Positions 1 to 56,985 of a stretch of DNA of 64,000 nt are shown one piece after another (the stretch's first letter is position 1; each line of letters begins with the position of its first letter). Where the stretch lies: assembly GCA_964534995.1 (NCBI GenBank), contig CAZHSC010000003.1, positions 4,252-68,251 on the forward strand, given 5' to 3'. This DNA comes from an uncultured Bifidobacterium sp. GTDB lineage: Bacteria; Bacteroidota; Bacteroidia; AKYH767-A; OLB10. The notes under the pieces are model-generated. The model was not told where the DNA came from, did no database searches, and saw nothing but the letters and a program-made list of their open reading frames with translations. The position numbers and the translations under genes are program-made.

Positions 1-92
1 CTGGCGTTTGTTTCACAAAAAATGCTTCACGGAGATCATTAGCTTTCATTCACAAGAAATGGGAATCCAGGCAAAAGGAGAAAATAAGCGAT

Positions 93-947
93 TTATCTTA
101 AAATAAAATTAAAGGTAATGCTTCCTTTTTGTTCTTCTACACCTTGAGGGCTTTGACTGAATTTCGCTTTCATGGCAGCTTCTTTCGATTTGCGCACCAA
201 TCCCGCGTTTGTTATCGTGCTTCCGCGAGCGGGTCCTTCGGCTCTCAATACATTCCCGTTTTTATCAACAATTATATCAATAACTATTTTGCCCTGCTCC
301 TGAGACTGGTCTTCCAGTCGGGGCAGTGACTTCATATTTCTGCCGGCCAGATCGAAGCCGACACCATTTCCGGGCCCATGGCCACCCCCGCTTCCGGTTC
401 CGCTTCCACCACCCGAACCCGTTCCTGTTCCATCGCCGGATCCTCCACCATCCCCCGTACCTTGCCCACCACTTCCTTTGCCACCCTGCGTACCCGTTGG
501 GGCTCCGCCGCTGCCTTTCTTTCCGGGATATAAACTCCTTGGATCCGCTTTTCGCTCTTCTACTTTGGCCAGTTCAGGTTGTTTGACAGTACTTACCGTT
601 GTGGGCTTTTTCACTTCCTTCTTCAACACCTTTTCCTCTTTCTTCTTCTCCTCTTTCTTTTTTTCGGGTGTATCAATACTTACCGTTTCTTCCAGGTCGG
701 AAGTGAGGATTTCTTCTTCATCTGCTTTAGAAATCGCCTGTTCAGGAGGAGTAGGTACAGCTTCGGGAGGTACGTCATTGAATTCCATCTCACCGAATTC
801 CACAAAACTGCCACCACCACCGCCGCCTGCAAGACCTTCTTCCCAGGGAGGGATAGGAGAGGAGATGTATAACAACATCATCAAAGCCAGTATGGCCGCG
901 TGAATAAGTAGCGTTAAACCCAGAGAACGGTATTGATAACTTTTCAT
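93..947 (-). CDS. tonB: TonB-family energy transducer
   Basis: N-terminal TM anchor (LTLLIHAAILALMMLLYI). Pro/Glu/Lys-rich spacer (KKKEEKKKEEK) and a long Gly/Ser/Thr linker. C-terminal TonB-C-like region (GKIVIDIIVDKNGNV...GSITFNFIL). Last gene of the exbB-exbD-tonB arrangement, overlapping exbD by 4 nt. Confidence 0.7.
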   Translation of the reverse strand: MKSYQYRSLGLTLLIHAAILALMMLLYISSPIPPWEEGLAGGGGGGSFVEFGEMEFNDVPPEAVPTPPEQAISKADEEEILTSDLEETVSIDTPEKKKEEKKKEEKVLKKEVKKPTTVSTVKQPELAKVEERKADPRSLYPGKKGSGGAPTGTQGGKGSGGQGTGDGGGSGDGTGTGSGGGSGTGSGGGHGPGNGVGFDLAGRNMKSLPRLEDQSQEQGKIVIDIIVDKNGNVLRAEGPARGSTITNAGLVRKSKEAAMKAKFSQSPQGVEEQKGSITFNFILR

Positions 948-1357
948 TGCTCGCCGGCCTGTTTGGTGAGGTTGGTAGCTGCCACCATTTTGATTTTATT
1001 TTTGTTGCCGATATCGAGAAGGAAAACTACTTCCTGCCAGGGGACGCTCTTGTCTACCTTCAGCAGGGCGGTTGGATCGGTTTGACCGGCTACGGCAGCA
1101 GTTACTGCGGCTTCTACCCCTTCACGGGGCACCACGTCTTTGTTTACCACAAATTGCAAATCGGGAGTTACCGAAATAACCACCGGATGTTTCATGCTTT
1201 GTATGCCTGTTTTTGAATTAGGCAATAGTAATTTCAAAACAGATGGCGTTGCCAGTGTAGAGGTAATCAGGAAAAAAAGCAAGAGGAAGAACATGATGTC
1301 ATTCAGTGAATGACTGTATACTTCCGATGCAGCTTGTTGTCGGCGACGAAGGTTCAT
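944..1357 (-). CDS. exbD: ExbD/TolR biopolymer transport protein
   Basis: 137 aa with a single N-terminal TM (IMFFLLLFFLITSTL) and an ExbD-like periplasmic domain. 4-nt overlaps with both neighbours. Confidence 0.8.
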   Translation of the reverse strand: MNLRRRQQAASEVYSHSLNDIMFFLLLFFLITSTLATPSVLKLLLPNSKTGIQSMKHPVVISVTPDLQFVVNKDVVPREGVEAAVTAAVAGQTDPTALLKVDKSVPWQEVVFLLDIGNKNKIKMVAATNLTKQAGEQ

Positions 1358-2076
1358 GGCTTCACGGGTTCTTCAAGAAGGTCAATAAACTGAACTGCGT
1401 TGATCTCCATTTTATTGATAACTCTGTCAACGCGCTGTACAAGATAATGGTAACAGGAATAGGCTATCATTCCAACAAGAAGACCTGCTGCGCTGGAGAT
1501 CATTTTAACATACAAACCTCCGGATATGGTGTCAATTTCAAGACTGTTTTGTAAAGAAATCTGGTAAAATATTTTGATTACCCCGAAGATGGTACCAAGA
1601 AATCCAAACATGGGAGCGATGCCAGCAATAGTGCCCAGGAAACCCAGGTTGCGCTCCATGGAAAAAACCTCCAGTTTCCCCTGGTTTTCAATGGCAGATT
1701 CAATTTCACGGATGGGTTTCCCCAGTCGCGCAAGGCCTTTGTCAATCATTCGTGCAATGGGGTTATCCGTTGCTTTGCACAAACTGCGTGCTGCCTGAAT
1801 ATTTCCCTGATGTACCTGGTCCCGGATTTGGTTCATGAAATTCTGGTCAAGCCGGCTGAATTTAATGATCACAAAAAGTCGCTCAAAGAAAATATATATG
1901 GCCAGCAGGCTTAGAATCCCAATGGGAATCAGGATGGGTCCACCTTTGCTTGCCATTTCCCATAGAGACATACTTTGCTCGGCAGGAGCAGCAGGTTGGG
2001 TAAGCGGGGCAACAGCTGCAGCGGCAGAATCGGCCAGGGTGCCGGCACCCTGGGTAATCTGAAGTATAAGGGACAT
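1354..2076 (-). CDS. exbB: MotA/TolQ/ExbB proton-channel protein
   Basis: 240 aa with three TM segments and a conserved MotA/ExbB core (IAPMFGFLGTIFGVIKIF). First gene of the operon. Confidence 0.8.
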   Translation of the reverse strand: MSLILQITQGAGTLADSAAAAVAPLTQPAAPAEQSMSLWEMASKGGPILIPIGILSLLAIYIFFERLFVIIKFSRLDQNFMNQIRDQVHQGNIQAARSLCKATDNPIARMIDKGLARLGKPIREIESAIENQGKLEVFSMERNLGFLGTIAGIAPMFGFLGTIFGVIKIFYQISLQNSLEIDTISGGLYVKMISSAAGLLVGMIAYSCYHYLVQRVDRVINKMEINAVQFIDLLEEPVKP

Positions 2077-41313: not shown

Positions 41314-44300
41314 TTACTGTGTCAGATCCAGTGTTTTAAAAGCGGTGTTGAAGAGTACAGGTGCCTTGCTCCATGTTTCAAGCGCATGGCGATGCTTGAC
41401 AACCACATAGAAAGAGTTGTTCAATGCGGCAATAGGAAAGTGCATGCTGGCATTGCCATCCGTAAGGACAACATCTTCATCAGTGTACAAAATGGTATAA
41501 GGAGCAGTGGTAGATGCCAGACTTACTGCGATGGTATCCGCAACCGTTGGACTACCACCGGGATTGCTCACTGCATTCATCAGATTTGTACCCGGATTGT
41601 AATAGCCTTCAAAATATAATTTGAGATTCAGTGTTACAAAAGGGTTGAATCCTTCAATTTTGATGTTGTCCACATAAATATTGTTGCCATAATGTCCATG
41701 GTTCATGAAGGAGAGTTGGATGTTTTCACCACCAAACGATGTGATGTCGACAGAATCTGTTCTCCATTGTGAGGCCGTTGGTGTGAAGTAGCCTCCGGTT
41801 CCGGGTACTGTTGCGAGTGTCGTACCGGGTTTTACATAGATGCCGGAATAGCTTTGCCCGCAATCGGAAGAAAGTAGGACGGAGAGGGAGTCGAGGTATT
41901 GTGGACTGGTACTGTACAGTTGATGCGCGACATCGAATTTCAATTGATAGTTTCCAAACCCATTCAGATCATACCGTTTTGTGATGACTTCATCTCGTGC
42001 ACCGTAGGAATCCAGGGTGTAATTCGCGAAGAGCATGGATCCGCTGCCGTTACCAAAGCCGCTCGCTTGTCCTGTGCGTGTCCACATTTTACCATCATTC
42101 CCGCCGTCTAAATTGGTCCACTCCGAAGGTGGAAAAAGGGTGCCTTCAAAGTCTTCCGTTATCGGGATGGCTTGTCCGATAGTAGAAATGTAATTGTTTT
42201 TCGTGATGGTGTTGCTCCCGCCCAATGAACTAACGGTAAGTGTAACCGAAAAGAGGCCGGTGCCGGTGTATTTAACTTTCGGGTTTTGTAAATTGGAAGA
42301 AGAAGGAGACCCGCCGGGAAAACTCCATAGCCAGGAGGTAGGATTGCCGGTACTTAGATCACTGAATTGAACAGAGTCGCCGCTGCAAGGCGTGTTGGTG
42401 TTTGCTGTGAACGCGGCGTTGATGGAGCGAAGGCTACTGATAGGTGTTTCCCACATTCCTCTTCCGTAGGTAGAAACCCGCAGCACCGAGTTGTTGGTGC
42501 CGTCATCAAAGATGCAGATATCATTGATGGTGGTGCGACTCGGTAATTGTTGATTGAAGAGTGTCCAGCTGGTATGTGCGCCGAGTTTAAAATAAATGGA
42601 ATTATTTCCTCCGGCAACGATCATGAGTTCATCCGCGGGATAAAAATCATCAGTGATCAGATCAAGATAATTCACCGAAGGAAGGTTGTAAGTGATATTG
42701 GTCCAGGTGGCGCCATTGTTTATAGATTTATAAATCCGCGTATTCATAATGGCATACAAAGTATTTGGATTTCCTTTCACGGAAACAATTCCGGCAGCAT
42801 TATTGGTAGCATAGGGCAATGCATACTGCGTGAACGTCGGCGAAGCACTCATGGCATTGGTGCTTACATAGATGAACTGGTCGTTAGTGATGGCATACAC
42901 TCTGTTGGAATCCGACTGGGAGACATGAAGAGCGGAAATTCTCTTGTTAAAGGAGGAGATGGTGGTCCATGCAGGGGTAGTCGCGCTGAGATTGATGGTT
43001 CGGAAAACATTTGAGTCTCCCACAAAGGCGATATTGGGTTGACCGCGATAGAAGGCGATATCTCTGTAACTGCTCACCGGTAATCCGAATGTGCTTTCTC
43101 CGCCTGTGACATTTCTGCGTCGGGCATTGCTGTAATAATATACACGCTGACTGTTCGGAAAATAATCAAAGGCGCATTTCGACGACCAGTCTCCTCCCCG
43201 GTTGCAAAACCATCCTGTTCCTGAATTCTGGTAGTAGAGTTCGCCATTGTCCTGAGTGCCGATGCTCATCATGTCTTTGCGTGTCGGACTGGTATAGCCA
43301 TGATAGATTTCATATCCGTAGATGCCATCGCTCTTGGGTACCCAGTTATTCCCGCCGTCGGTACTCAGCCAGACACCGCCATCGTTCATGTTCCAGAGTT
43401 TCGTGTTGTTATGCGGACTGGTGATGATCTGATGCATGTCGGTATGAACCTTTGCCCACCAGTTGGTAAGCTGGGACCAGGTAAAGCCTCCATCGGTTGA
43501 TTTCCAGACGGCATGGGCTACAAGGTAAATGATATTCGGATTGGTTCTGTCCACACCAATGGAAAAATTATAATCTCCCTGCCCTACGTCACCGGGATCA
43601 TTGGTGTAGTAGGTGAGGTAAGGGGGAGAACTTGTTTTAATGGCAGTGAATGTGCTGCCACCATCCACTGATTTATAGAGCAAGCCACCACTACTCACCA
43701 TGCCCAGATAAACGATGTTCGTGTCAGCCGGCGTCACGGCAATTCTGCATCCGCTCCCTGTGGTCACTCCCGGCGGTAAGACGATACCGTTATTGATTTG
43801 CGTCCATGTATCGCCGAAGTCATTAGACCGGAAGAAGGCCGAGTCGCGTGTAGCCGCGTACAAAACCCTCGACCCCGGTCTCTTCTCCTTCATATCATCA
43901 AATGCAATAGCCCCCGTTTTTAAAGACCAGGATGAGCCGCCGTTGGTGGTTTTATAAATCCCGGCGTTGGTTGCAGCAACGATCACCTGATTGTTTGTCG
44001 GATCCATGGCCATTTCCACAACTAATTTAGATGTCAGTGATGTTGCGGTAAAGGTCGTTCCGCCATTTGTAGATTTATAAACGCCACTACCATTATAATA
44101 GTAGTTATGGTCGCCGGTGCCGAGATATAAAATCTGATCATTGGTATGATCAATGCAAACAGAAGCCAGACGCATGCCCGGCAGAATGTCGCACCCCGGA
44201 GCAATCGTCCAGTTGTTGCCACCATTACTACTGATGAACAGTCCGCCGCGTGCACTGACCGCATACAATTTATTGGTATCTGTGGGATGAAATTTCATCT

Positions 44301-44448
44301 GGCTGATACGACTGATACCATGTATTTGTCCGCTGACATTGGTGGGGAAATAGGCGGGAGCCACAGGAGTCCAGCTGGCGGTCTGTGCCGGGGAAGAGAA
44401 GCTATTGGTAAGAAAAATGAAGAGGAGGAAGGTGGTAATTTTATTCAT
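41314..44448 (-). CDS. secreted BNR/Asp-box repeat (sortilin/Vps10-like) protein with PKD and MAM/jelly-roll-like modules
   Basis: Signal peptide. At least 8 Asp-box repeats (STNGGTTF, TTNGGSSW, SNDFGDTW, SVDGGSTF, STDGGFTW, STDGGNNW, SINNGATW). PKD-like segment (FSVTLTVSS). No convincing type-A T9SS sorting domain at the C-terminus. Confidence 0.65.
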   Translation of the reverse strand: MNKITTFLLFIFLTNSFSSPAQTASWTPVAPAYFPTNVSGQIHGISRISQMKFHPTDTNKLYAVSARGGLFISSNGGNNWTIAPGCDILPGMRLASVCIDHTNDQILYLGTGDHNYYYNGSGVYKSTNGGTTFTATSLTSKLVVEMAMDPTNNQVIVAATNAGIYKTTNGGSSWSLKTGAIAFDDMKEKRPGSRVLYAATRDSAFFRSNDFGDTWTQINNGIVLPPGVTTGSGCRIAVTPADTNIVYLGMVSSGGLLYKSVDGGSTFTAIKTSSPPYLTYYTNDPGDVGQGDYNFSIGVDRTNPNIIYLVAHAVWKSTDGGFTWSQLTNWWAKVHTDMHQIITSPHNNTKLWNMNDGGVWLSTDGGNNWVPKSDGIYGYEIYHGYTSPTRKDMMSIGTQDNGELYYQNSGTGWFCNRGGDWSSKCAFDYFPNSQRVYYYSNARRRNVTGGESTFGLPVSSYRDIAFYRGQPNIAFVGDSNVFRTINLSATTPAWTTISSFNKRISALHVSQSDSNRVYAITNDQFIYVSTNAMSASPTFTQYALPYATNNAAGIVSVKGNPNTLYAIMNTRIYKSINNGATWTNITYNLPSVNYLDLITDDFYPADELMIVAGGNNSIYFKLGAHTSWTLFNQQLPSRTTINDICIFDDGTNNSVLRVSTYGRGMWETPISSLRSINAAFTANTNTPCSGDSVQFSDLSTGNPTSWLWSFPGGSPSSSNLQNPKVKYTGTGLFSVTLTVSSLGGSNTITKNNYISTIGQAIPITEDFEGTLFPPSEWTNLDGGNDGKMWTRTGQASGFGNGSGSMLFANYTLDSYGARDEVITKRYDLNGFGNYQLKFDVAHQLYSTSPQYLDSLSVLLSSDCGQSYSGIYVKPGTTLATVPGTGGYFTPTASQWRTDSVDITSFGGENIQLSFMNHGHYGNNIYVDNIKIEGFNPFVTLNLKLYFEGYYNPGTNLMNAVSNPGGSPTVADTIAVSLASTTAPYTILYTDEDVVLTDGNASMHFPIAALNNSFYVVVKHRHALETWSKAPVLFNTAFKTLDLTQ

Positions 44449-44493: not shown

Positions 44494-44934
44494 TTAATCT
44501 TTCCTCGGTTGCTCCTTCTGCCAAATCTCCAAACGCTCCTGCTCAGAGAGGATTCTGCCGTCACTTTGAACAAAGGGGAAGACCGTTCGCTTCCAGTCCT
44601 TGAAGCGTTTGAACTGGTATTTTAGATTTTCGTATTCATTTCTTTGCGCTTGCGACCAGGCGGCTCTGGCAGAACGCATACTATCTGCCTGTTCAGTTGT
44701 GATCCTGCCCTCCGTGATCAGTTCTCCCTCTTCTTCCGGCTCGATCTTTCCTTCCCAGAACATATCAAATGCTTTTACGGCAGTATAATAATTCACCTGT
44801 GGGTCTTCCATCATTTCTATCCATACAGGTATTTTATGGTAATCCTGTTGTTCAGTGGTTTTCTTTTCCTGGGCTTTCAAAGCGGTAAGGGTAAATGACA
44901 GCAGAAAGAGAAGCAGCAGCTTGAGGGATTTCAT
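44494..44934 (-). CDS. small secreted hypothetical protein
   Basis: Signal peptide (LLLLFLLSFTLTALKAQ). 45-bp gap to the downstream BNR-repeat gene suggests co-transcription. Confidence 0.4.
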   Translation of the reverse strand: MKSLKLLLLFLLSFTLTALKAQEKKTTEQQDYHKIPVWIEMMEDPQVNYYTAVKAFDMFWEGKIEPEEEGELITEGRITTEQADSMRSARAAWSQAQRNEYENLKYQFKRFKDWKRTVFPFVQSDGRILSEQERLEIWQKEQPRKD

Positions 44935-45053: not shown

Positions 45054-45077
45054 GTTTGAAAGACACAATTTTCAAAC
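45054..45077. promoter_or_regulatory. 24-bp palindromic candidate operator upstream of the LOX-like gene
   Basis: GTTTGAAA-N8-TTTCAAAC perfect 8-bp inverted repeat, about 65-85 nt upstream of ATG 45140. Confidence 0.3.
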
Positions 45078-45139
45078 GGTTGGGATTTAGGGGTCCGCAT
45101 AATATTTATCCCTATCTTTAGTCATCCATAAAATACGCG

Positions 45140-47518
45140 TTGATTATGAAAAAAATGATACTGTTACTGTTGGTTTTATTACTAAAGCCATGGTCTCTGT
45201 ATAGTCAATGTCAGGCCGGTTACGATGAAGTCATTGTCGTTATACAGCCGGACAATTATCCTTCCGAAACTTCCTGGTCGCTCAAAGATCTGTCAGGAAA
45301 TATCCTTGATTCAGGCGGTTCAACAGGTGATACCGTTTGTGTTCCCACTGGTATTTGCCTGATATTTGAAATCCGTGATACTTATGGCGATGGCATCTGC
45401 TGTAACTTCGGCAATGGTTTTTACGCGGTTTATCTCAATGGTACCATTCAGGCAGCGGGCGGACAGTTCACTTACAATGAATTCAGCTATCTAAATTGTC
45501 CTCCCGGTACTCATTGCGGAAGCGCGCTGGCAGCATATGAAGACACCCTTAGCACTTCCTATGGCAGCAGCATCTGGTATACCTTTTCGCCTGACTCTAC
45601 GGGCACTTATAATGTTTCTACCTGTTTTCCTTCCAATAGTTGCGACACACGGCTTTGGATATATGATCACTGCAACGGACTTGTCTGGAACAATGATATG
45701 GCCGGCACTATTTATTACAATGACAGTACCTGCGGTATCCAGGCCTTCATCCCGGCGGGATTACAATCCGGGCAAACCTATTATATCAGGGTGGGGGGTG
45801 ACTCCACCTGTAGTAATGACAGTATCGTATGGCAGATTACCTATGCCGGACCTATTGTAGGGTGTATGGATCCCGCTGCCTGTAATTACAATCCCATCGC
45901 TACTGTCAGCAATGGCAATTGCATCTATCCGGGTGATCCTAATTGTAATTCAGGTCCTGATTTGGTGGTAGATGGAAATACGCTTATTAACTCACTGAAT
46001 ATGGGTGTGGTGAATGGAAACGATGTTTGCCTGATCGGTGAAGGGTGTTTGTCAGGCTACGGAGCCAGAAATGTGATTAATTTCAGTACGCGTATAGCCA
46101 ACATTGGCGATGCGGATTATTACATCGGGCAACCTGCCACCGGAAATTCTCAATTCGTTTTTGATCAGTGCCATGGCCATTGGCATTATGCAGGCTACGC
46201 GATGTATAACATTTACGATACGCTGGGAGTTCCCTTGCAGGCCGGATTTAAAAATGGATTCTGCGTCCTCGATTTACAGTGTTTTGGAGGTACGGCAAAA
46301 TACAGTTGTGGTAACATGGGTATTTCTGCCGGTTGTGCCGACATTTATGGTGCCGGACTCGCTTGTCAGTGGCTCGATATCACCAATATCCCTGCCGGCC
46401 GTTATACACTCGTGGTGCGTGTAAACTGGGATCAGGATCCGGATAAACTCGGACGACAGGAGCAGCGCTTTGATAACAATGTAGCAGCGGTATGTATCAA
46501 TATTACCCGTGATACAGCCAATGTCCCCTCTTTTGTGATACTTCCCAATTGTCAGCCCATTATTGATTGCGCCGGAGATACTTTCGGTTTGGCCGTTAAC
46601 GATTGTATGGGAAATTGTAATGGTTCGCGGGTACGTGGTGACCTTAACATTGACAGTTTGCGGGATGATATTGATATTGATATGTACCTTATTGATATTA
46701 CGGCTCAGCAAAGCGTAATGCCATGCAATGATGTCAATGGTGATAATACCCTTACCGTTACTGACGCTTCTCTGGTAAGTGGATGTATCCGTCAATCCCA
46801 GGGCTCGCATGCACATCAGGGCGGTACTCAAAATACACACAGGCATTGTGAATTTCCCTGGAACATTATCAATACCAATGATACAGTACGGCTAGGAATC
46901 AGTCAGGTAAATCAAAGCCTGAATTACATCGATATTAATATACTGAATCCCGATTGCCGTTTACTGGCCATTGACTTTACCATGAGCGGTGTGGTGATGG
47001 ATTCGGTGGTTTCATTGATCAGTGGCTTTAGTCCCTTTATAAAATGGGATGCAGTAACAGGACGTATCGCCATCCTGGATACGGCCGAAATCTCACTCGG
47101 GAAACAATTGACAGCGCTACCATTTGTGCGTATTTATTTTAGTTCACTTACGAGTACAACCGTGTGCCTTGCATCCATCCATGCCGCTGTGAATGCCGAT
47201 TACGAAGAAACCCTGAAAAGCATCTTCAATGGTTGTGTGACCGTTACAGGCATCAACATTCTCTATCAAAGCGGACTTGTTAAAATCATACCGAACCCTT
47301 CGGAAGGCATCTTTGCCATTTCTACTGATGTGCTTAATGGCGAAAGCGCAAACATCAGCATTCTGGATGCTATGGGCAGATTGATCTATGCTTCCAAAGA
47401 AGTACTCTCCGCGGGCAAAGGAATTTCAGTTGATCTCAGCAAACATCCCAAAGGTGTCTATCTGGTGCGTGTTCTTACCGGGCAACTTGAAGTAACCGAA
47501 CGACTGGTGAAATTGTAA
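45140..47518 (+). CDS. secreted lysyl-oxidase (LOX) family copper amine-oxidase-like protein with dockerin-like Ca-binding module and T9SS C-terminal sorting domain
   Basis: Signal peptide. LOX catalytic-domain motifs line up with human LOX: copper HxHxH (QCHGHWHY), LTQ lysine context (GFKNGFCVLD), GCADIYGAGLACQWLDITNIPAGRYTLVV, and NNVAAVC. Two DxNxDx6D loops (DLNIDSLRDDID, DVNGDNTLTVTD). Sorting domain KIIPNPSEGIFAIS...GVYLVRVLTGQLEVTERLVKL. Confidence 0.75.
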   Translation: MIMKKMILLLLVLLLKPWSLYSQCQAGYDEVIVVIQPDNYPSETSWSLKDLSGNILDSGGSTGDTVCVPTGICLIFEIRDTYGDGICCNFGNGFYAVYLNGTIQAAGGQFTYNEFSYLNCPPGTHCGSALAAYEDTLSTSYGSSIWYTFSPDSTGTYNVSTCFPSNSCDTRLWIYDHCNGLVWNNDMAGTIYYNDSTCGIQAFIPAGLQSGQTYYIRVGGDSTCSNDSIVWQITYAGPIVGCMDPAACNYNPIATVSNGNCIYPGDPNCNSGPDLVVDGNTLINSLNMGVVNGNDVCLIGEGCLSGYGARNVINFSTRIANIGDADYYIGQPATGNSQFVFDQCHGHWHYAGYAMYNIYDTLGVPLQAGFKNGFCVLDLQCFGGTAKYSCGNMGISAGCADIYGAGLACQWLDITNIPAGRYTLVVRVNWDQDPDKLGRQEQRFDNNVAAVCINITRDTANVPSFVILPNCQPIIDCAGDTFGLAVNDCMGNCNGSRVRGDLNIDSLRDDIDIDMYLIDITAQQSVMPCNDVNGDNTLTVTDASLVSGCIRQSQGSHAHQGGTQNTHRHCEFPWNIINTNDTVRLGISQVNQSLNYIDINILNPDCRLLAIDFTMSGVVMDSVVSLISGFSPFIKWDAVTGRIAILDTAEISLGKQLTALPFVRIYFSSLTSTTVCLASIHAAVNADYEETLKSIFNGCVTVTGINILYQSGLVKIIPNPSEGIFAISTDVLNGESANISILDAMGRLIYASKEVLSAGKGISVDLSKHPKGVYLVRVLTGQLEVTERLVKL

Positions 47519-48481: not shown

Positions 48482-48748
48482 ATGAATCATTTCGTCTATT
48501 TCTTAAGAAAGACCTTTCTCCAAGGTGTTTTCAAATTTCTTGCGTGTGTAATTCTTTTGTTGTTCTTTTCTACTTCATTATTCGCCGGCAACTACACATG
48601 GAACGGCACCATTAACAGCGATTATTCAAATACAGGTAACTGGTCGCCTTCTGGAACTCCCGGGACTAACGACACCATCACCATCAATTCCGGGAAACCT
48701 AACCTGGAACTGGATCAAGATAGAACCGTGAATCGGCTTATTCTCTAA
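48482..48748 (+). CDS. segment 1 of the interrupted giant gene: signal peptide plus start of the adhesin N-terminal repeat
   Basis: MNHF...LLLFFSTSLFA signal peptide, then GNYTWNGTINSDYSNTGNWSPSGTPGTNDTITINSG...TVNRLIL, ending at TAA. Confidence 0.5.
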   Translation: MNHFVYFLRKTFLQGVFKFLACVILLLFFSTSLFAGNYTWNGTINSDYSNTGNWSPSGTPGTNDTITINSGKPNLELDQDRTVNRLIL

Positions 48749-48778
48749 GGGAGCACAATAGATTTAGATACCAATGAA

Positions 48779-51700
48779 TTGCATGTCACACAACGGGCAT
48801 CCTTTAATGGTGGTGATGTCATTGGAGAGTCATTAAAACTGAGAGGAACTTATGCTTTCTTTCAGGGAACAGATTTTAATTGTACCTTAGATGTTGTGGT
48901 AGGACAAATAAAGTTTTCCGGCGGTACATTTGACCAGACCGGATCCTTTGAACAAAACGGCGGGGCCAGCGGTTGGGGTGAGGGCGGTTGCGTGTTTAAT
49001 GCTGAAGTAACTATTAAGAATACAGGAGCTACTTACCTGCGAATGGGAGAAAGTGAAGGAGATGTTTTTAATGATGTCGTTCATTTCTATTCTACCAACG
49101 TTTATGCGCTTCAATTGGCATATGGTGATACAACGATTTACAATAATGCTGTTTATTTAAATAGTACCGGAAATGGAGGAATATCATTTTGTGCAAGCCT
49201 GGATACAAATCATGTGGGTTATGCCCTTTTTGCACTGGAAGGAGAAATCCTTACCGGTAGCTCCGGATTTACTGCTGGTAATATTAATATGAAGCATCTT
49301 TTGTATGAATCCACCAATAGTGCAAACCTGACCGGTAGCGGTACCTCTACCCTTACCTTGAGCGAGAGTAATTTCGCCGGAAAAGTTAACTTTGCCTCCA
49401 CAAATATTTATGTAAAGACAACTGTATTCAATGATAGTACGCTGTTGGTGAGAAGCGGAGCCACATCATCTCAAAGTTGGTCAGGAGGTAATATTTTCAA
49501 AGGCGTTACTACGATTTCCAGTACTTTTTCGAGCAACACCAGTTATACATTTACACTGGCTTTAGATAGCGGTGATGTATTTGAGAAGGATGTGTATTTC
49601 AACACCCAAATTCTTACAATGAGAGTCGCATTTAAGGGAACCACTAAATTTTATGGAGATGTAAACATCAATAGCTCTAAAGTTGTATTCAATGCAGGAA
49701 GAGGTATTTTCATGTGCTCAGGAGAAATGAACCAAAGTATAGGCGGGAGTGCTGCTTATCTATTAGGGAAATTACACCTAAATAAGGAAGCGGGCAAGGT
49801 GGAAATGATGCGATCTTGTACCATTGATAGCAGTTTGACATTGAGTGGTGGCTTATTACAAACGGATTCTCTTATTTCTCTAAAATCTCCGGTGACTACA
49901 ACCGGCTCCTCTGCCAATAGTTTCATTGATGGCCCTGTGAAAAAAACCGGAAATTCAGCGTTTGTTTTCCCTATTGGAGATCAGGGCAAGTACCGGCCCT
50001 TAACTATATCTGCTCCATCACAGGCGACAGATGCTTTTTCTGCGCAGTACTTCTATAGCCCTCAGCAGGCAGGTACATCAACTGATACTACTATAGGGGA
50101 AATCAGTCCATGCAATTATTGGGATTTGCAACGCAAAACAGGCACCAGCAATGTCTATGTGACTTTGAGCTGGGATTCTATTGGCTGTTGCGTGCTGGAT
50201 TCTTCCAATATAAAAGTGATTAACTGGAATAATTCTGTCTGGAAGGATCTGGGCAAAGGTAGTCTTGGCGGCAATGCAAATACGGGTCAAATTACTTCAG
50301 CTATTGTTCCATATACTTATGGATTAATTACAATAGGGACAAATCCTATCATTATTAAAGATATCTTTCCTGTGGTAGATAGAAACAAAACTGATGAAGG
50401 CTGGTATCATTCTTTTGTTGCGGAAGACCCCATTTACGGCTACAATGGAAGCAATACCATTGAACCGGGAAAAAGTTGGCAGGATTATGCGAACGTAGAT
50501 CTCTTGAAAGAGAAAAATGTGAAGTCCTTACGAATACCTTCCGGCACCACTGCCAACTATTGGGATTGGAGGGAAGGATGGTTTTTAAAGGAGCATGAAC
50601 TCCCTGAGGGATGGTTGTACGAAAAGGAAAAATATAAAGCTGCCAACATCAGTGGAAATGAAATGATAAACATTAAACCACATGTAGATGAGTTGGGTGC
50701 TGCACCTGTTTATCTTTTTAACATGCTCACCTCCGATTTTCATTATCAATTGGCAAGTTTGTATAGAGCACATCAAATTAACTTGCCTGTAAAATTTGTA
50801 GAATTGGGCAATGAGTTTTATCTGAATGAAGCACACCATCGCAGTAAATTTCCAAACGCGAGTGACTATGCCGTAGCCTGCAATGACTGGACAAGTCAAT
50901 TAAAAGCTATAGCACCTTTTGCTGACGTGAAAGTGGCCGTGATTGGATGTGATGGTGGCGATGATTCACCGGGTAGAAGAAGATTATGGCTGGAGAGAGT
51001 GCTTGCCAACTTAGATCCGCAAGCCCAAATTGATGCTATAACTATTCATCAATATTATGGAAATGGATTAGGAAGTCAGCCTTTTAGTGGAAGTGCCGGT
51101 AGTCTTAAGACCATGCTTTCCCGGCCATTTAAAGAAATAGAACTGTTAATTGGTCATGAACTAAATCTCATCAATGACTTCAATGAAGGACCTCTTTCAG
51201 CATTTCCATTGAAAACCTGGATTACTGAGTTTAATTTACGCACCTCAGGTCATGGAAGCACGGGCACATGGGCACATGGCTTGTTTCATGCTGCAATGGC
51301 ATTGAGTTATCTGGAATCGCAAAATATCACATCGATTATTTCACATACTATGAGTAGTGATGTGCTTTTCGGAAATATTTTTGATTCAAATAATGGATTT
51401 GCCACTTATGCTCAAAATGGCAATTACCCACCCACGACCAAACAAAATGAATATACCGCTTTAGGAGCAGCTTTTAATCAAATTGCCAAAGCTGCCCGCT
51501 ATGCAACGGACGCATATAAAGTTGATTTTACCGGTATAGACGACCAGGATTTACCCTATCTCTATAATACAGGTGTTAATACCACTTCTGTAAGAGAGGT
51601 GTATGCCTGGCTCTTTGAAAGTGCTGCCGGCAATGAACTTATTGTGTTAAACCTGGGTGGTAATTCTTTTCATATGTATTTAGATGATATTTTTCAATCT

Positions 51701-52282
51701 GTCGGTCTTTCTACACACCCCATTCGTTATGAAAGGTTAATCAGTGTTGACATTACGGGCGGAATAACGGGAAGCCCTGTAACAAGTATTCCGCCAACTC
51801 CCGTTGGTTATGATAATTATTATCTGATTACGAGCAATGAACTTCCGGTTGCAACAAATTCAAACGGAACATTTGTTCCAATTTCAAATTACTCCCTAAC
51901 CCGCATCTCACAAAAACTTCCCGGATTTATTTTGAATGTTACGGATGATCATATTTGTACAAGTACCAGTACTGAACCCTCTACTACCTCAATAGTAATT
52001 ACCGGTGGTGTTTCTCCGTATACTATAGTTGAAACATCTCCTAATAGTAGTACAAGCTACTCCCAGCCCGATTCTGTTATAGCATTTACAGCACATCAAA
52101 CAAACACAGGAGTTTACACGATTACAGTTACCGATGCGAATAATTCAACTGCAACTGCAACGATTACAGTTGATACGCGTCCAATAGTTAATGTAACCTC
52201 CAATCCTACTTCAGGCAATTGCAATACATCATTCCAGTTAACAGCATCAATCAACCCGGCGCCTTCAAATTATGAGTATTAA
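48779..52282 (+). CDS. segment 2: parallel beta-helix repeats, clan GH-A TIM-barrel glycoside-hydrolase-like domain, Ig-like/SprB-type repeats
   Basis: The track start is a TTG codon. GH-A signatures RIPSGTTANYWDW, VKFVELGNEFYL (candidate acid/base Glu) and TWITEFNL (candidate nucleophile Glu). C-terminal Ig-like repeat (VITGGVSPYTIVETSP...YTITVTDANNSTATATITVD). Confidence 0.55.
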   Translation: MHVTQRASFNGGDVIGESLKLRGTYAFFQGTDFNCTLDVVVGQIKFSGGTFDQTGSFEQNGGASGWGEGGCVFNAEVTIKNTGATYLRMGESEGDVFNDVVHFYSTNVYALQLAYGDTTIYNNAVYLNSTGNGGISFCASLDTNHVGYALFALEGEILTGSSGFTAGNINMKHLLYESTNSANLTGSGTSTLTLSESNFAGKVNFASTNIYVKTTVFNDSTLLVRSGATSSQSWSGGNIFKGVTTISSTFSSNTSYTFTLALDSGDVFEKDVYFNTQILTMRVAFKGTTKFYGDVNINSSKVVFNAGRGIFMCSGEMNQSIGGSAAYLLGKLHLNKEAGKVEMMRSCTIDSSLTLSGGLLQTDSLISLKSPVTTTGSSANSFIDGPVKKTGNSAFVFPIGDQGKYRPLTISAPSQATDAFSAQYFYSPQQAGTSTDTTIGEISPCNYWDLQRKTGTSNVYVTLSWDSIGCCVLDSSNIKVINWNNSVWKDLGKGSLGGNANTGQITSAIVPYTYGLITIGTNPIIIKDIFPVVDRNKTDEGWYHSFVAEDPIYGYNGSNTIEPGKSWQDYANVDLLKEKNVKSLRIPSGTTANYWDWREGWFLKEHELPEGWLYEKEKYKAANISGNEMINIKPHVDELGAAPVYLFNMLTSDFHYQLASLYRAHQINLPVKFVELGNEFYLNEAHHRSKFPNASDYAVACNDWTSQLKAIAPFADVKVAVIGCDGGDDSPGRRRLWLERVLANLDPQAQIDAITIHQYYGNGLGSQPFSGSAGSLKTMLSRPFKEIELLIGHELNLINDFNEGPLSAFPLKTWITEFNLRTSGHGSTGTWAHGLFHAAMALSYLESQNITSIISHTMSSDVLFGNIFDSNNGFATYAQNGNYPPTTKQNEYTALGAAFNQIAKAARYATDAYKVDFTGIDDQDLPYLYNTGVNTTSVREVYAWLFESAAGNELIVLNLGGNSFHMYLDDIFQSVGLSTHPIRYERLISVDITGGITGSPVTSIPPTPVGYDNYYLITSNELPVATNSNGTFVPISNYSLTRISQKLPGFILNVTDDHICTSTSTEPSTTSIVITGGVSPYTIVETSPNSSTSYSQPDSVIAFTAHQTNTGVYTITVTDANNSTATATITVDTRPIVNVTSNPTSGNCNTSFQLTASINPAPSNYEY

Positions 52283-52309: not shown

Positions 52310-55300
52310 TTGGAAACATTTAACGGATCATGTAATCCGGGAGGAGTAACTCCAATGTGTTCTACTATTGTGGTAAACCCAGAGCAAACAACTTCCTATC
52401 AGGTGTATGTGTTTGATGGTACATGCTGGAGCCGGAGTAGTGAGTATGAGATACTGCGAGCACCCGTAAATCATGTGGATATTGGCGAAGATCTTACGGT
52501 TTGTTCAGATGGTGTTACTGGGCCAACTATTAAACTAAGCGCAATCCTTGATTCAGACCCAACCATAACTATTAGTGGAACTTATAATTGGACTATTTCC
52601 GGAACGTCCGGTAATATTCCTAATTGTTCCACGGATTGTGAAATACTATTACCTGCAACAATTGGGGAAACATATACAATAACGCTATCTCTTTTAGAAA
52701 GTGGATTTCCATGTTCAATTCCCGACGTAATGGAAGTTTATGTTACAGAATGTTGCGATTGTATATCAAATTCAATTTCTTTAAATCCAAGTCAAGGAAC
52801 GACAGTTGAAAATCATGTTTTCTCAAGCCAGCTTTCTCAACAAATGTTAAATCCATATTTCCTAAAAGCGAATGAAGATTTTGAGCCTATTTATGATATT
52901 AAAGGATGGATTCCCGTTGTTTATCCGAACACGTCTCAAACACCAAACAGCAATACCATTTGCATCAACGGAGATTTAATAATTGACCGGGATATAGCGT
53001 TTCGTGATGTCATTTTAAGGATGAATGAGAATAGTAAAATTAGAATTTTAGATGATCATTTACTCATTTTGCAAGGATGTAGTATTAAAAGTTGCGACAG
53101 AACTATTCCTGCTGCTATGTGGGATGGAATCGAAGCGGAAAGGTTACTTGATAAACGGGAACCTCGACTTTTTATTGACCAAAGTAGCACAAACAGAACC
53201 TCTATTTCTGAAGCTAAAAGTGCTATTTCTTTAAAAAACGGAGCAGAATACATCATTGAAAACACTGATTTCACCAATAATTATGTGGATATTGATGTGG
53301 CCGATTATGGGAATGTAATTCAACAAAACACTATTACCGGCACATCCAAAAAACTTTTCTCCGTCCACTCCAATACCTTTTCCAACTCGGTGGACCCGCT
53401 ACTTCCTCCTTATGATAATGTGCATAAATTCGCCGCCATCCGTCTGGATGATGTGGAGCGGTTTGTGTTAGGGGATTCAACCGACGAGGCTCACAGAAAT
53501 TCAATTAACAATTCAATTTATGGAATTCGTGCGATGAACTCCGGTTTTGAAGTATATAATACCGGGTTTAGTGATATAGAAAATTTAGATAATTGGTCAA
53601 CGAAAACATTGGCCGGAAGCGCGATTTATGGAGATGGCTTTAACGATGGTGCGGATAGAAATGTGTTGATTGGAGCTACGACAGCGGGTACAGGATTCAG
53701 AAATGTTTTTAATTCATCTGTGAATGGTATTGTTTCGGTTGGAGAAACGAACTTGAAGGTGTTTAATAATGAATTTGGTAGTGGTAGTACCAATGAACGA
53801 CTTGTGAATTATGGAATATGGACACATGGTAGTAATAAAAAATCTGTTTATATCACTCGCGGAAATGAGTTTTATGATTACTATGTTGGCATCAGGAGTT
53901 TTGGGATTCATCCGGATGGTATCTATCATATAGGATTTAATAATTTTTTCAACGCCTATATCCCAAATTGGAGTGTAGTGAATTCTTTTCAGGGTACAGC
54001 TATTCATATGTCGAATAGTTATGTACCACCATCTTTTATTGGTCAATCAGAAGTTCCTCCAATTAATATTTACAACAATGAAATTGGACAAATAAATGAT
54101 GAAGCTGAAATTGAACCAAGAATAGGGATTTTCACCTCTAATATTTATCAACCTATCATCCAAAACAACAATATTTATTATTTCAGAGCAGCACAGGTGT
54201 CTAAACCGCATAGCATTGGTATCTGGGCACAAAACTGTATTGCACCAAGAGTAGCAGGGAATTTAATTTTGGAGCACCAAAATATTAATCAAGGTTATGG
54301 TGCTAACCTCATTGGTATGAAGTTCGACCGAAATATTAATCCTTGTATTGGCAGCCAAAGTATTACAGAAAATTTAGGCTATGGAGTAAGTTTTTGGGAC
54401 AATAACGGTCAGGTGACCTTATCTACCAATCAATTTACAAACTGCGACCATGGCGTAAATTTAGACTGGGCAGAAATCGGCACACAAGGTGACCCCGACC
54501 GAACCGATGATAATGAATGGGTCGATCGAAGTGTTAGTCCGGTTCTGAACCGCGTGAATGGTCTTACTCAAAGTAATCTTCCAATTACCTGGTATTATCA
54601 ACCTACACCAAATGCATTTTCGCCACTGCCGAGTACGATTGTCGACGATCAAGACATTAATCCTAATCTACCAATTTTAGATTGTCCAATTATTCAAAAT
54701 GTTGCCCCTCGCAATCAGACTTTTGGATATGTTATTGGCGACTCCGCCCGATATGAAGAGAACTATCAGAGTAGTTTCAGCTACAGTGCAAAAATGATAA
54801 CCTACAAAATTTTAAAACGGGACAACTCGCTCATGGAAATGGAAGATGAGACGGATGAATCGTTTATAGATTTTTACAATGCTATGAGTCAAAGCAATAT
54901 AGAAAAATACGATTCCGTTGCGCTTTTAATTACACAGGGCGAATTTGCTGTTGCTGCTGCATTACTGGCAGGTATTGAAGATACCAATGACCAGGAAACT
55001 TACCTTACAAATTTTTATACACTCTACCTTACAAAAATTGCGTATGATTCCTTGTTAAGTAATGCGGATAGTTCGTTGCTAATTGAAATAGCCTATTCTC
55101 ATTCACTATTGTATGGAGATGCAGTATACCTGGCCCGTAACACTCTGTTTCTTGAAATTCATGATGAAACACTTGAAAGCAATTTAAGAAGAGCTTTTAT
55201 TAGTAAACTTCCTGAGAATAATAATTTATCAACTCAACCCAATCCTGCGTCTTTACTAACTCAAGTAAGGCTGAACGATGAAGAATATTCCGGTAGAGTG

Positions 55301-55453
55301 CAGTTGCTAGATGGACATGTTCAGTTGATAATAGATCGTAACCTCCAAAATGGATGGTTAGATGTAAAGAATTTGAATCCGGGAATTTACTTTATAAAAA
55401 CGTTTGGTGAAGGAACTTCACCGTTATTGTGTAAGCTTGTAATTATCCGATGA
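52310..55453 (+). CDS. segment 3: Ig-like repeat continuation, right-handed beta-helix region and T9SS C-terminal sorting domain
   Basis: Begins inside a YxYxWxPxxGL-type repeat (TYLWTPSTGLETFNGSCNPGG...TTSYQVYVFD). Long beta-helix-like repeats. Sorting domain at the end (PNPASLLTQVRLNDEEYSGRVQLLDGHVQLII...GIYFIKTFGEGTSPLLCKLVII). Confidence 0.55.
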   Translation: METFNGSCNPGGVTPMCSTIVVNPEQTTSYQVYVFDGTCWSRSSEYEILRAPVNHVDIGEDLTVCSDGVTGPTIKLSAILDSDPTITISGTYNWTISGTSGNIPNCSTDCEILLPATIGETYTITLSLLESGFPCSIPDVMEVYVTECCDCISNSISLNPSQGTTVENHVFSSQLSQQMLNPYFLKANEDFEPIYDIKGWIPVVYPNTSQTPNSNTICINGDLIIDRDIAFRDVILRMNENSKIRILDDHLLILQGCSIKSCDRTIPAAMWDGIEAERLLDKREPRLFIDQSSTNRTSISEAKSAISLKNGAEYIIENTDFTNNYVDIDVADYGNVIQQNTITGTSKKLFSVHSNTFSNSVDPLLPPYDNVHKFAAIRLDDVERFVLGDSTDEAHRNSINNSIYGIRAMNSGFEVYNTGFSDIENLDNWSTKTLAGSAIYGDGFNDGADRNVLIGATTAGTGFRNVFNSSVNGIVSVGETNLKVFNNEFGSGSTNERLVNYGIWTHGSNKKSVYITRGNEFYDYYVGIRSFGIHPDGIYHIGFNNFFNAYIPNWSVVNSFQGTAIHMSNSYVPPSFIGQSEVPPINIYNNEIGQINDEAEIEPRIGIFTSNIYQPIIQNNNIYYFRAAQVSKPHSIGIWAQNCIAPRVAGNLILEHQNINQGYGANLIGMKFDRNINPCIGSQSITENLGYGVSFWDNNGQVTLSTNQFTNCDHGVNLDWAEIGTQGDPDRTDDNEWVDRSVSPVLNRVNGLTQSNLPITWYYQPTPNAFSPLPSTIVDDQDINPNLPILDCPIIQNVAPRNQTFGYVIGDSARYEENYQSSFSYSAKMITYKILKRDNSLMEMEDETDESFIDFYNAMSQSNIEKYDSVALLITQGEFAVAAALLAGIEDTNDQETYLTNFYTLYLTKIAYDSLLSNADSSLLIEIAYSHSLLYGDAVYLARNTLFLEIHDETLESNLRRAFISKLPENNNLSTQPNPASLLTQVRLNDEEYSGRVQLLDGHVQLIIDRNLQNGWLDVKNLNPGIYFIKTFGEGTSPLLCKLVIIR

Positions 55454-55461
55454 CATAGACA

Positions 55462-56985
55462 ATGAAAAGTGTAGCCGTACTTGCTTTCTTTCTTTTTACT
55501 ACCATTTCTTTGTATGCGCAAAAATACAAAGGGAATGTATGGTGTTTTGGGGATTCAGCTGGAATTGACTGGGCAAATCCTAATTCTCCAATATTTTTTA
55601 GATCGATGATGCATGGAAGGAGTGGCACGGCAAGTATTAGCGATAGTAGTGGGAATTTAATATTATATTCTGGTTATAAGCGTGAACCAGCAAATAATCG
55701 TGGATGGATATTAAATAAATTCCATCAATTAGTACCCAATGGTGACACGTTGTATTTTCAAGATTGGTATCATTCTGTCATCCTTCTTCCAAGTGTAAAT
55801 GATTCAATAATTTATTTGTTTTCAGTTAGTGTTACAAATATTCAAACCTATGGCCTTTATTACAGCACGGTCAATTACAAAGCTAATAGTGATTCCGGAA
55901 TTGTTACACAAAAAAATATCCAGTTAAACAACCTTCCGGCATTTGATGGATTGGCTACTGTCAGGCATGGAAACGGACTGGATTGGTGGGTAATATTTAA
56001 GGATTATGACCCTACACCGCCTTACACTTTAAGCAGTAAATTTTATATCTATTTGGTCGATGCAAATGGGCCCGCACTTCATCATACCCAGACGGTCGGA
56101 ACTGTTTTTAATGATGGAGGAGGGCATTCACTTTTTAATACAGATGGCTCTAAATTTTACTTGTGTACTTGGGGAGGTGCCATTGAATATTTTGATTTTA
56201 ACAGATGCAATGGTTATTTTTCAAATCCAACAGTAATTGAACCAACAAGAAGCGCTCAACCTTATCCTTATTATAACTCATTGGCTTTATCTCCTGATGA
56301 AACAAAGCTGTATGTGTCTGCATATTCTCAATACAACTCATTAGGCGGTACCGATTCTTTGTACCAGTTTGATTTAACAGCGGCTAATATTTCTGTCAGT
56401 AAAACACATATTTATGGCGCACCAAATACTTATGTTGGACTTGGAGCATTAAGAAAGGCTCCTGATGATAATATATACTTAGCTGCTACTTATTTAAATT
56501 ATTACCCGTATCAGGACACTTCTTACAACGTTTATAACACCCACCTTTCCGTCATCAACCAACCCGATTCACTCGGCCTTGCCTGCGATTTTCAACCCTT
56601 CAGCTTTTACCTCGGGGGTGCCAGAACATATAACGGCCTTCCCAACAATCCCGATTACGAACTCGGCGCCTGGGTGGGTTCTCCTTGCGATACGCTGAGT
56701 GTGGGTGTGGATGATTTTCAACCCCCAAAGCAAACGTTTTTTCAAGCCTGGTATAATAGTGAGTGGAATATGATTCACGTAAACGCCTCTAAACTTAAAG
56801 GTAGAACGGGAAGTTTGCGCTTGTTTGATATGGAGGGGAGGTTGGTGTATGAGAAAAAAATTGAGGTGAAAGCGGGAGGGTATGTAACGGGAGAGATACC
56901 GATGAATGCGGTCGTGAATGGAGTTTATCTTGTCAATTTAATAACTGATTCGGAAAGTGTTTCGTCTAAGATTGTTAAATTTTAG
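55462..56985 (+). CDS. secreted beta-propeller (lactonase-like) protein with T9SS C-terminal sorting domain
   Basis: Signal peptide. Propeller-blade motifs (SPDETKLYVSAYS, FNTDGSKFYLCTW). Sorting domain (GSLRLFDMEGRLVYEKKIEVKAGGYVTGEIP...GVYLVNLITDSESVSSKIVKF). Confidence 0.6.
   Translation: MKSVAVLAFFLFTTISLYAQKYKGNVWCFGDSAGIDWANPNSPIFFRSMMHGRSGTASISDSSGNLILYSGYKREPANNRGWILNKFHQLVPNGDTLYFQDWYHSVILLPSVNDSIIYLFSVSVTNIQTYGLYYSTVNYKANSDSGIVTQKNIQLNNLPAFDGLATVRHGNGLDWWVIFKDYDPTPPYTLSSKFYIYLVDANGPALHHTQTVGTVFNDGGGHSLFNTDGSKFYLCTWGGAIEYFDFNRCNGYFSNPTVIEPTRSAQPYPYYNSLALSPDETKLYVSAYSQYNSLGGTDSLYQFDLTAANISVSKTHIYGAPNTYVGLGALRKAPDDNIYLAATYLNYYPYQDTSYNVYNTHLSVINQPDSLGLACDFQPFSFYLGGARTYNGLPNNPDYELGAWVGSPCDTLSVGVDDFQPPKQTFFQAWYNSEWNMIHVNASKLKGRTGSLRLFDMEGRLVYEKKIEVKAGGYVTGEIPMNAVVNGVYLVNLITDSESVSSKIVKF

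Follow-up and report, generated by a model that had tools for sequence, protein, structure and literature searches.

A predicted T9SS-exported lysyl oxidase with a putative in-cis dockerin-cohesin unit in uncultured Bacteroidota

Lysyl oxidases (LOX), which cross-link collagen in animals, have a central place in the biology of the animal extracellular matrix; we know of no native function for their prokaryotic relatives. What, then, would a bacterium do with a LOX that it exports, and what would a dockerin on such an enzyme hold on to? Both questions are raised by one gene in the stretch of DNA analyzed here, 64,000 nucleotides of contig CAZHSC010000003.1 in assembly GCA_964534995.1 (hereafter the window). 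Sequence and fold comparison give the order of its product as a signal peptide, two beta-sandwiches, the LOX domain, a Cys motif, a dockerin, a cohesin-fold domain and a C-terminal sorting domain of the type IX secretion system (T9SS). From its sequence features, the protein is fairly likely to be an exported, disulfide-rich copper amine oxidase of the lysyl-oxidase family that carries an in-cis dockerin-cohesin unit. An initial annotation of the window, made from the nucleotides and a list of open reading frames (ORFs), had reached the core of this interpretation, which is supported here; what it said of the rarity of such proteins and of an upstream palindrome is not. The features on which the argument turns are as follows.

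45146..47518, plus strand: complete LOX-family multidomain gene, 790 residues, stop codon at 47516-47518 (ORF list and homologues)
45950..46555, plus strand: LOX catalytic domain, aa 269-470 (Pfam, LOXL2 alignment, fold)
46172-46186, plus strand: codons of the copper-site residues His343, His345 and His347 (alignment with LOXL2)
46250-46252, plus strand: codon of Lys369, predicted precursor of the lysine tyrosylquinone (LTQ) cofactor (alignment with LOXL2)
46346-46348, plus strand: codon of Tyr401, the other predicted LTQ precursor (alignment with LOXL2)
46556..46636, plus strand: Cys motif DCAGDTFG..DCMGNCNG, aa 471-497, preceding the dockerin
46637..46792, plus strand: dockerin-like module, aa 498-549, with two 12-residue calcium loops, D499-D510 and D529-D540
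46793..46846, plus strand: His-rich linker QSQGSHAHQGGTQNTHRH, aa 550-567, of lower model confidence
46847..47242, plus strand: cohesin-fold beta-sandwich, aa 568-699, directly after the dockerin (fold)
47285..47515, plus strand: type-A T9SS C-terminal sorting domain, aa 714-790 (TIGR04183, PF18962, fold)

The ORF list contains an intact plus-strand frame running from either a TTG at 45140 or an ATG at 45146 to 47518. Full-length homologues (61-86% identity, ~790 residues) start at the equivalent Met, and alignment with them makes ATG 45146 the preferred start, for a product of 790 residues.

The central domain belongs to the LOX family. The profile search proposed in the initial annotation gave a match to Pfam Lysyl_oxidase (PF01186) of 102.3 bits against a cut-off of 20.4 (E=3.7e-29), far beyond chance; all 38 aligned homologues match the same family, and fold comparison finds the LOX catalytic fold. 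The four sequence blocks from which family membership had been proposed are all in place. QCHGHWHY, at 46166-46189, holds the HxHxH copper site, and its H343, H345 and H347 align with the LOXL2 copper ligands H626, H628 and H630 (LOXL2 numbering is chain index + 317; residue identities are from PMC5899467 and PMC9694262). GFKNGFCVLD, at 46244-46273, places K369 opposite LOXL2 K653, and the tyrosine/Cys-Gln-Trp block GCADIYGAGLACQWL, which begins at 46331, places Y401 opposite Y689; K653 and Y689 are the LTQ precursors. The fourth block, NNVAAVC, likewise occurs where it had been reported.

The alignment extends beyond the active site. Eight Cys residues align with LOXL2 C573, C579, C625, C657, C663, C673, C685 and C695, and two more (C450 and C469), which lie beyond the alignment, are equated with C732 and C746 from their spacing only; the ten match the five LOXL2 disulfides. 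D272, L273, E439, N444 and N445 correspond to the LOXL2 calcium ligands D549, L550, E722, N727 and N728. These mapped copper, LTQ, Cys and calcium residues are invariant in the query and 72 full-length homologues from species-level genomes, down to 41% identity. Because the catalytic and cofactor residues are invariant across 73 diverged sequences, the comparison indicates an active enzyme rather than a relic. Judged from its sequence, the catalytic domain is a complete LOX of the ordinary kind. Convergence of the His, Lys and Tyr residues on a single site in a structure model is not diagnostic, because Lys653 and Tyr689 lie 16.6 Å apart in precursor LOXL2 as crystallized (5ZE3; PMC9694262).

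Export is predicted from both ends of the protein. The protein had been said to end in a canonical type-A sorting domain, and this is borne out: aa 714-789 of 790 match both TIGR04183 (40.8 bits against a cut-off of 23, E=1.6e-10) and PF18962 Por_Secre_tail (45.5 against 27, E=9.5e-12), and the fold matches T9SS substrates in translocon complexes (8glk_D, 8gl6_D and 8qb1_A). An N-terminal signal peptide is evident from the sequence, and the best 80 relatives are all metagenome-assembled genomes (MAGs) of Bacteroidota. In sorting domain, signal peptide and Bacteroidota host, the protein resembles known type-A cargo such as NucA, RemA, mirolase and RgpB; it differs in that the cargo is a predicted amine oxidase. 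We found no description of amine oxidases as a T9SS cargo class in the searchable literature, nor any paper in the searchable library linking bacterial LOX with T9SS or with these taxa.

Between the oxidase and the sorting domain, the dockerin-like module comprises two EF-hand-like calcium loops, each followed by a helix, as in type I dockerins. The two DxNxDx6D loops noted in the initial annotation do lie within 46637-46792, but their spacing is 30 residues (D499 to D529), not the ~35 given there. In a profile search with aa 466-702, the best PDB matches are dockerins (2vn6_B, 1daq, 2mte, 2vn5_B, Amy16 and others; E 0.014-0.7), with both loops aligned. Three of 38 relatives match Pfam Dockerin_1 (PF00404) at E<=0.01, the best at 5.8e-7, and two score above its cut-off: P0159 at 46.6 bits and P0160 at 25.9 bits. 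The query module is 40% identical to one of the P0159 repeats. In the Cys motif in front of it, C475, C487 and C491 are invariant in the homologue alignment; the HxH...HxH pattern of the linker behind it recurs in many, not all, homologues.

The initial annotation overlooked what follows the linker, and this alters how the dockerin is to be read. By fold comparison, aa 568-699 form a cohesin beta-sandwich, and a two-domain model of dockerin plus cohesin has a predicted template modeling score (pTM) of 0.86. At the sequence level the domain matches nothing in Pfam, NCBIfam or PDB: aa 565-708 have no Pfam match even at E<=10, the cohesin family PF00963 included, and no cohesin is among the PDB sequence-profile matches of aa 466-702. 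A profile of the domain matched only 267 representatives among 1.84 billion proteins. Co-occurrence was counted in the best 150 of these 267. Among the 82 proteins of at least 700 residues in that sample, a LOX domain is present in 82 and a dockerin in 81, and in 107 of 110 cases a dockerin lies no more than 60 residues before the cohesin-like domain. Moreover, the two modules multiply together. Behind the LOX domain of P0159 (1936 aa) stand six dockerin-cohesin cassettes in tandem, five with the Cys motif in front, and P0160 (1015 aa) has two. These counts point to a stalk that differs in length with the number of cassette copies.

It is thus probable that the dockerin and the cohesin-like domain next to it are one obligate, calcium-stabilized unit, pairing in cis or between copies; we read the unit as self-contained because of the co-occurrence data and the high pTM. 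Such modeling and counts favor a stalk or self-association module, not a tag for a separate scaffoldin. In the cellulosomal and non-cellulosomal cohesin-dockerin pairs that we compared (1OHZ, C. thermocellum; 2VN5, C. cellulolyticum; 2W1N, C. perfringens GH84C; 2XDH, A. fulgidus) the arrangement differs from that seen here, where the modules are adjacent in one chain, almost always paired, duplicated together and confined to LOX proteins. The domain also differs from Pfam cohesins in having no detectable sequence similarity to them.

The N-terminal third of the protein comprises four further features.

45146..45205, plus strand: signal peptide MKKMILLLLVLLLKPWSLYS, aa 1-20, a basic n-region followed by a Leu-rich h-region
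45206..45496, plus strand: N1, a Cys-rich beta-sandwich, aa 21-117, with no Pfam family
45497..45856, plus strand: N2, a beta-sandwich resembling PPC/collagen-binding domains, aa 118-237 (fold comparison)
45857..45949, plus strand: short four-Cys module CMDPAACNYNP...C, aa 238-268, with model confidence (predicted local distance difference test, pLDDT) of 52-58

Most homologues have A/S-Q-C at the end of the signal peptide in the alignment, and cleavage is predicted to fall before Gln21, in keeping with the 'Q-rule'. N1 is always present alongside the LOX domain in relatives and is all-beta in the AlphaFold model (pLDDT ~82-87); sequence searches of Pfam, NCBIfam and PDB returned no match for it. 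Many secreted bacterial enzymes carry PPC domains. N2 has the PPC/collagen-binding beta-sandwich fold and, on this modeled basis, resembles the collagen-binding (PPC) domains of clostridial collagenases. Its score against PF04151 (aa 118-234; 21.2 bits, E=5.4e-4) is below the gathering cut-off of 25.9, two of 38 relatives match that family at E<=0.01, and identity with the ColG/ColH collagen-binding (PPC-superfamily) domains is 13-15%. In the four-Cys module, C240, C246, C259 and C267 are invariant in the homologue alignment; searches of Pfam, NCBIfam and PDB gave no family for this ACNYN module.

Several observations weigh against an exported copper oxidase with an in-cis dockerin-cohesin unit. 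The resemblance to a type I dockerin, noted in the initial annotation, stands as regards the two calcium loops with their helices and the relatives that pass PF00404, but the query itself falls short, at 16.6 bits against a cut-off of 22.9, with a partial match that covers the second loop only. The cohesin assignment comes from fold alone, at 9-15% identity and with no Pfam match. In the catalytic domain, D724, one of the six LOXL2 calcium ligands, is not conserved, and model pLDDT is only 59-76 over aa 331-390, which include the His motif and Lys369. The closest genomic matches are uncultured MAGs in 80 of 80 cases, and comparison of the related loci revealed no conserved neighbor gene that would point to a substrate.

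These points bear differently on the alternatives. As the initial annotation implied, the dockerin could join the oxidase, cellulosome-style, to a separate cohesin scaffoldin or anchor within a multi-enzyme complex at the surface. We regard this as very unlikely: the sole cohesin-like domain found sits directly downstream in the same polypeptide, its profile yields only LOX proteins (with no LOX-less multi-cohesin protein in the best 150 of 267), the unit of duplication is dockerin plus cohesin together, and surface attachment would already be supplied by the T9SS sorting domain. It is harder still to believe in a pseudoenzyme, that is, a non-catalytic surface adhesin or structural protein keeping a LOX-like fold. 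The wealth of beta-sandwich adhesin-like modules would suit such a role, but all catalytic and cofactor residues are invariant in the 73 sequences to 41% identity, which would be unexpected for a pseudoenzyme.

A small-molecule substrate is likelier than either of these, though we think it improbable. The enzyme would then oxidize free lysine, polyamines, amino sugars or amine antibiotics, yielding ammonia for use or H2O2 against competitors or prey. The only characterized prokaryotic LOX, the archaeal HTU-LOX of Haloterrigena turkmenica, is an active amine oxidase sensitive to beta-aminopropionitrile (BAPN). Its specificity is relaxed, in that it accepts many small primary amines as well as aminoglycosides and polymyxin, and its native function is described as 'cryptic' (PMC6452851). 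Consistent with a small substrate, no candidate protein substrate is conserved beside the gene, and a Gly-X-Y ORF occurs in only one (L024) of the 81 sequences scanned (the window and 80 related loci). Against it, a polymeric or surface-bound target is hinted at by the surface stalk and by the PPC/collagen-binding-like domains that are obligatory at the N-terminus, though weakly, since so many secreted enzymes have PPC domains.

How does an exported oxidase with a dockerin-cohesin unit compare with the LOX proteins already described? Compared with animal LOX, especially human LOXL2 (5ZE3), this protein lacks SRCR domains and an animal-type propeptide; it instead has PPC-like domains on the N-terminal side and dockerin, cohesin and T9SS domains on the C-terminal side. 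His623, His637 and His652, conserved in human LOX proteins (PMC9694262), are not conserved here. The prokaryotic homologues (those of Grau-Bove et al. 2015, HTU-LOX and the Sorangium cellulosum LOX) share its Pfam family, but most are described as single-domain (PMC4448552), whereas here there is a fixed N1-N2-LOX-Cys-dockerin-cohesin core and a T9SS domain. The novelty is this set arrangement of accessory domains, chiefly the in-cis dockerin-cohesin cassette; the LOX family itself was already known in bacteria.

Nor is the architecture an isolated case. Bacterial LOX had been called rare in the initial annotation. In this lineage they are not: at E<=0.001 the LOX-T9SS family comprises 1052 clusters at 90% identity, a collection with one genome per species yields no fewer than 573 confirmed matches, and LOX in bacteria, Bacteroidetes included, were reported, mostly as single-domain proteins, in 2015 (PMC4448552). 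The best 120 of the 1052 clusters are all full-length, with both LOX and T9SS domains. Some members are named 'lysyl oxidase family protein' by NCBI; other database names are 'hypothetical protein' and 'T9SS type A sorting domain-containing protein'. The best 80 genomic matches, the closest of them 87% identical, are assigned to Chitinophagales, Saprospiraceae and 'Flavobacteriales' and come largely from freshwater and activated sludge. Around the fixed core, relatives add PKD, GEVED, Big_12, F5/8-type-C or MopE-like motifs. P0283 (2007 aa), for example, combines four putative metal-binding motifs of the MopE type (PF11617) with PKD domains, P0257 (2127 aa) has GEVED, Big_12 and F5/8 type C domains, and P0201 (1588 aa) has GBD_T9SS_assoc and fn3. 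A few names among these genomes are unexpected: loci L005, L023 and L067, whose LOX genes are 41-76% identical to the query, have record titles that name Bifidobacterium breve, Bifidobacterium sp. or Bifidobacteriaceae MAGs; those of L017 and L043 name Chitinophaga pinensis MAGs. The Bifidobacterium labels, at least, look like bins given the wrong taxonomy.

Two features upstream of the gene fared differently.

45113..45120, plus strand: upstream motif core TATCTTTA, ~25 nt from the ATG, a candidate -7 promoter element of the Bacteroidota type
45054..45077, no strand assigned: inverted repeat with 8-bp arms and an 8-nt spacer

In an upstream alignment of six orthologous LOX loci, CTATCTTTA (45112..45120) is the sole conserved block, and it resembles the Bacteroidetes -7 promoter box, TAnnTTTG. 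The inverted repeat had been described as a 24-bp perfect palindrome. Its actual sequence, GTTTGAAA-gacacaat-TTTCAAAC, consists of two arms around a non-palindromic spacer. It was found in none of the 80 related loci and is neither aligned nor conserved upstream of LOX orthologues. With up to two mismatches, the pattern matches once in the window and at least once in 8 of 100 shuffled sequences. A role as an operator was rejected on the spacer, the lack of conservation in related loci and the marginal statistical weight, and the repeat is probably not part of the LOX system.

The gene neighborhood is variable. In close relatives the LOX gene adjoins uvrD, DUF4290 and murA. In the window, two genes diverge from it: a 1044-residue secreted protein with Sortilin/VPS10 repeats and a PKD domain (41314..44448, minus strand) and a 146-residue signal-peptide protein without a family (44494..44934, minus strand). 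Only 6-7 related loci have the two beside LOX, and they were apparently inserted between it and uvrD. A conserved operon partner was rejected as a candidate, the downstream genes not being common to related loci. A nearby collagen-like substrate was rejected too, since the single case among 81 sequences is no evidence; in that Chitinophagales MAG locus, a partial ORF (2..1543, plus strand) that starts with Gly-X-Y repeats lies ~1 kb upstream of LOX. No further cohesin- or dockerin-like module occurs within the 64-kb window.

Farther downstream, ORFs at 48482..48748 (plus strand, 88 residues, signal peptide) and 48779..52282 (plus strand, 1167 residues) share a frame and are parted by a single TAA at 48746-48748 (…TVNRLIL*GSTIDLD…). 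The interval 48482..52282 is probably one gene of ~1266 codons for a large secreted protein, and its in-frame stop could be a pseudogene mutation, a sequencing error or a site of recoding. Beyond it are two more large secreted proteins (52310..55453 and 55462..56985, both plus strand), with sorting domains at 21.0 and 23.7 bits, below the threshold of 27, and, in one of them, a weak lactonase/beta-propeller signal. The region is a cluster of T9SS-type cargo genes.

From what is known of these families, the LOX protein would pass through the inner membrane via Sec and through the outer membrane via the T9SS; the latter would remove the C-terminal domain and leave the cargo on the cell surface or release it. 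His343, His345 and His347 would bind Cu(II), and Lys369 and Tyr401 would form LTQ. The enzyme would then convert primary amines to aldehydes, releasing H2O2 and NH3, with the epsilon-amino groups of lysines in extracellular proteins as the likeliest targets. Contact with the substrate polymer would probably be made by the beta-sandwiches at the N-terminus. Co-occurrence and modeling suggest that the dockerin and cohesin would act as a stalk, through an in-cis clasp or possibly head-to-tail self-association. A bolder reading has a surface LOX on a calcium-locked in-cis stalk of one to six cassettes, directed to proteinaceous material by collagen-binding-like domains, that would cross-link matrix or prey proteins covalently through lysine aldehydes. 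As a whole we consider it rather unlikely. If true, it would mean cross-linking or tethering by Bacteroidota of fresh water and activated sludge, for instance in their flocs or biofilms or in prey that they capture, and the first dockerin-cohesin pair to serve as an obligate intramolecular structural unit, not an intermolecular connector.

The LOX-T9SS family is large, strongly conserved and predicted to be exported to the surface with fixed accessory domains. It offers a system for the role of LOX outside animals, whether in cross-linking, adhesion, nitrogen scavenging or peroxide warfare. We know of no structure of a mature, LTQ-containing LOX, and the family may be a more tractable source of enzyme for obtaining one. 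Finally, an obligate and duplicable dockerin-cohesin cassette within one enzyme family would widen the known roles of cohesins and dockerins.

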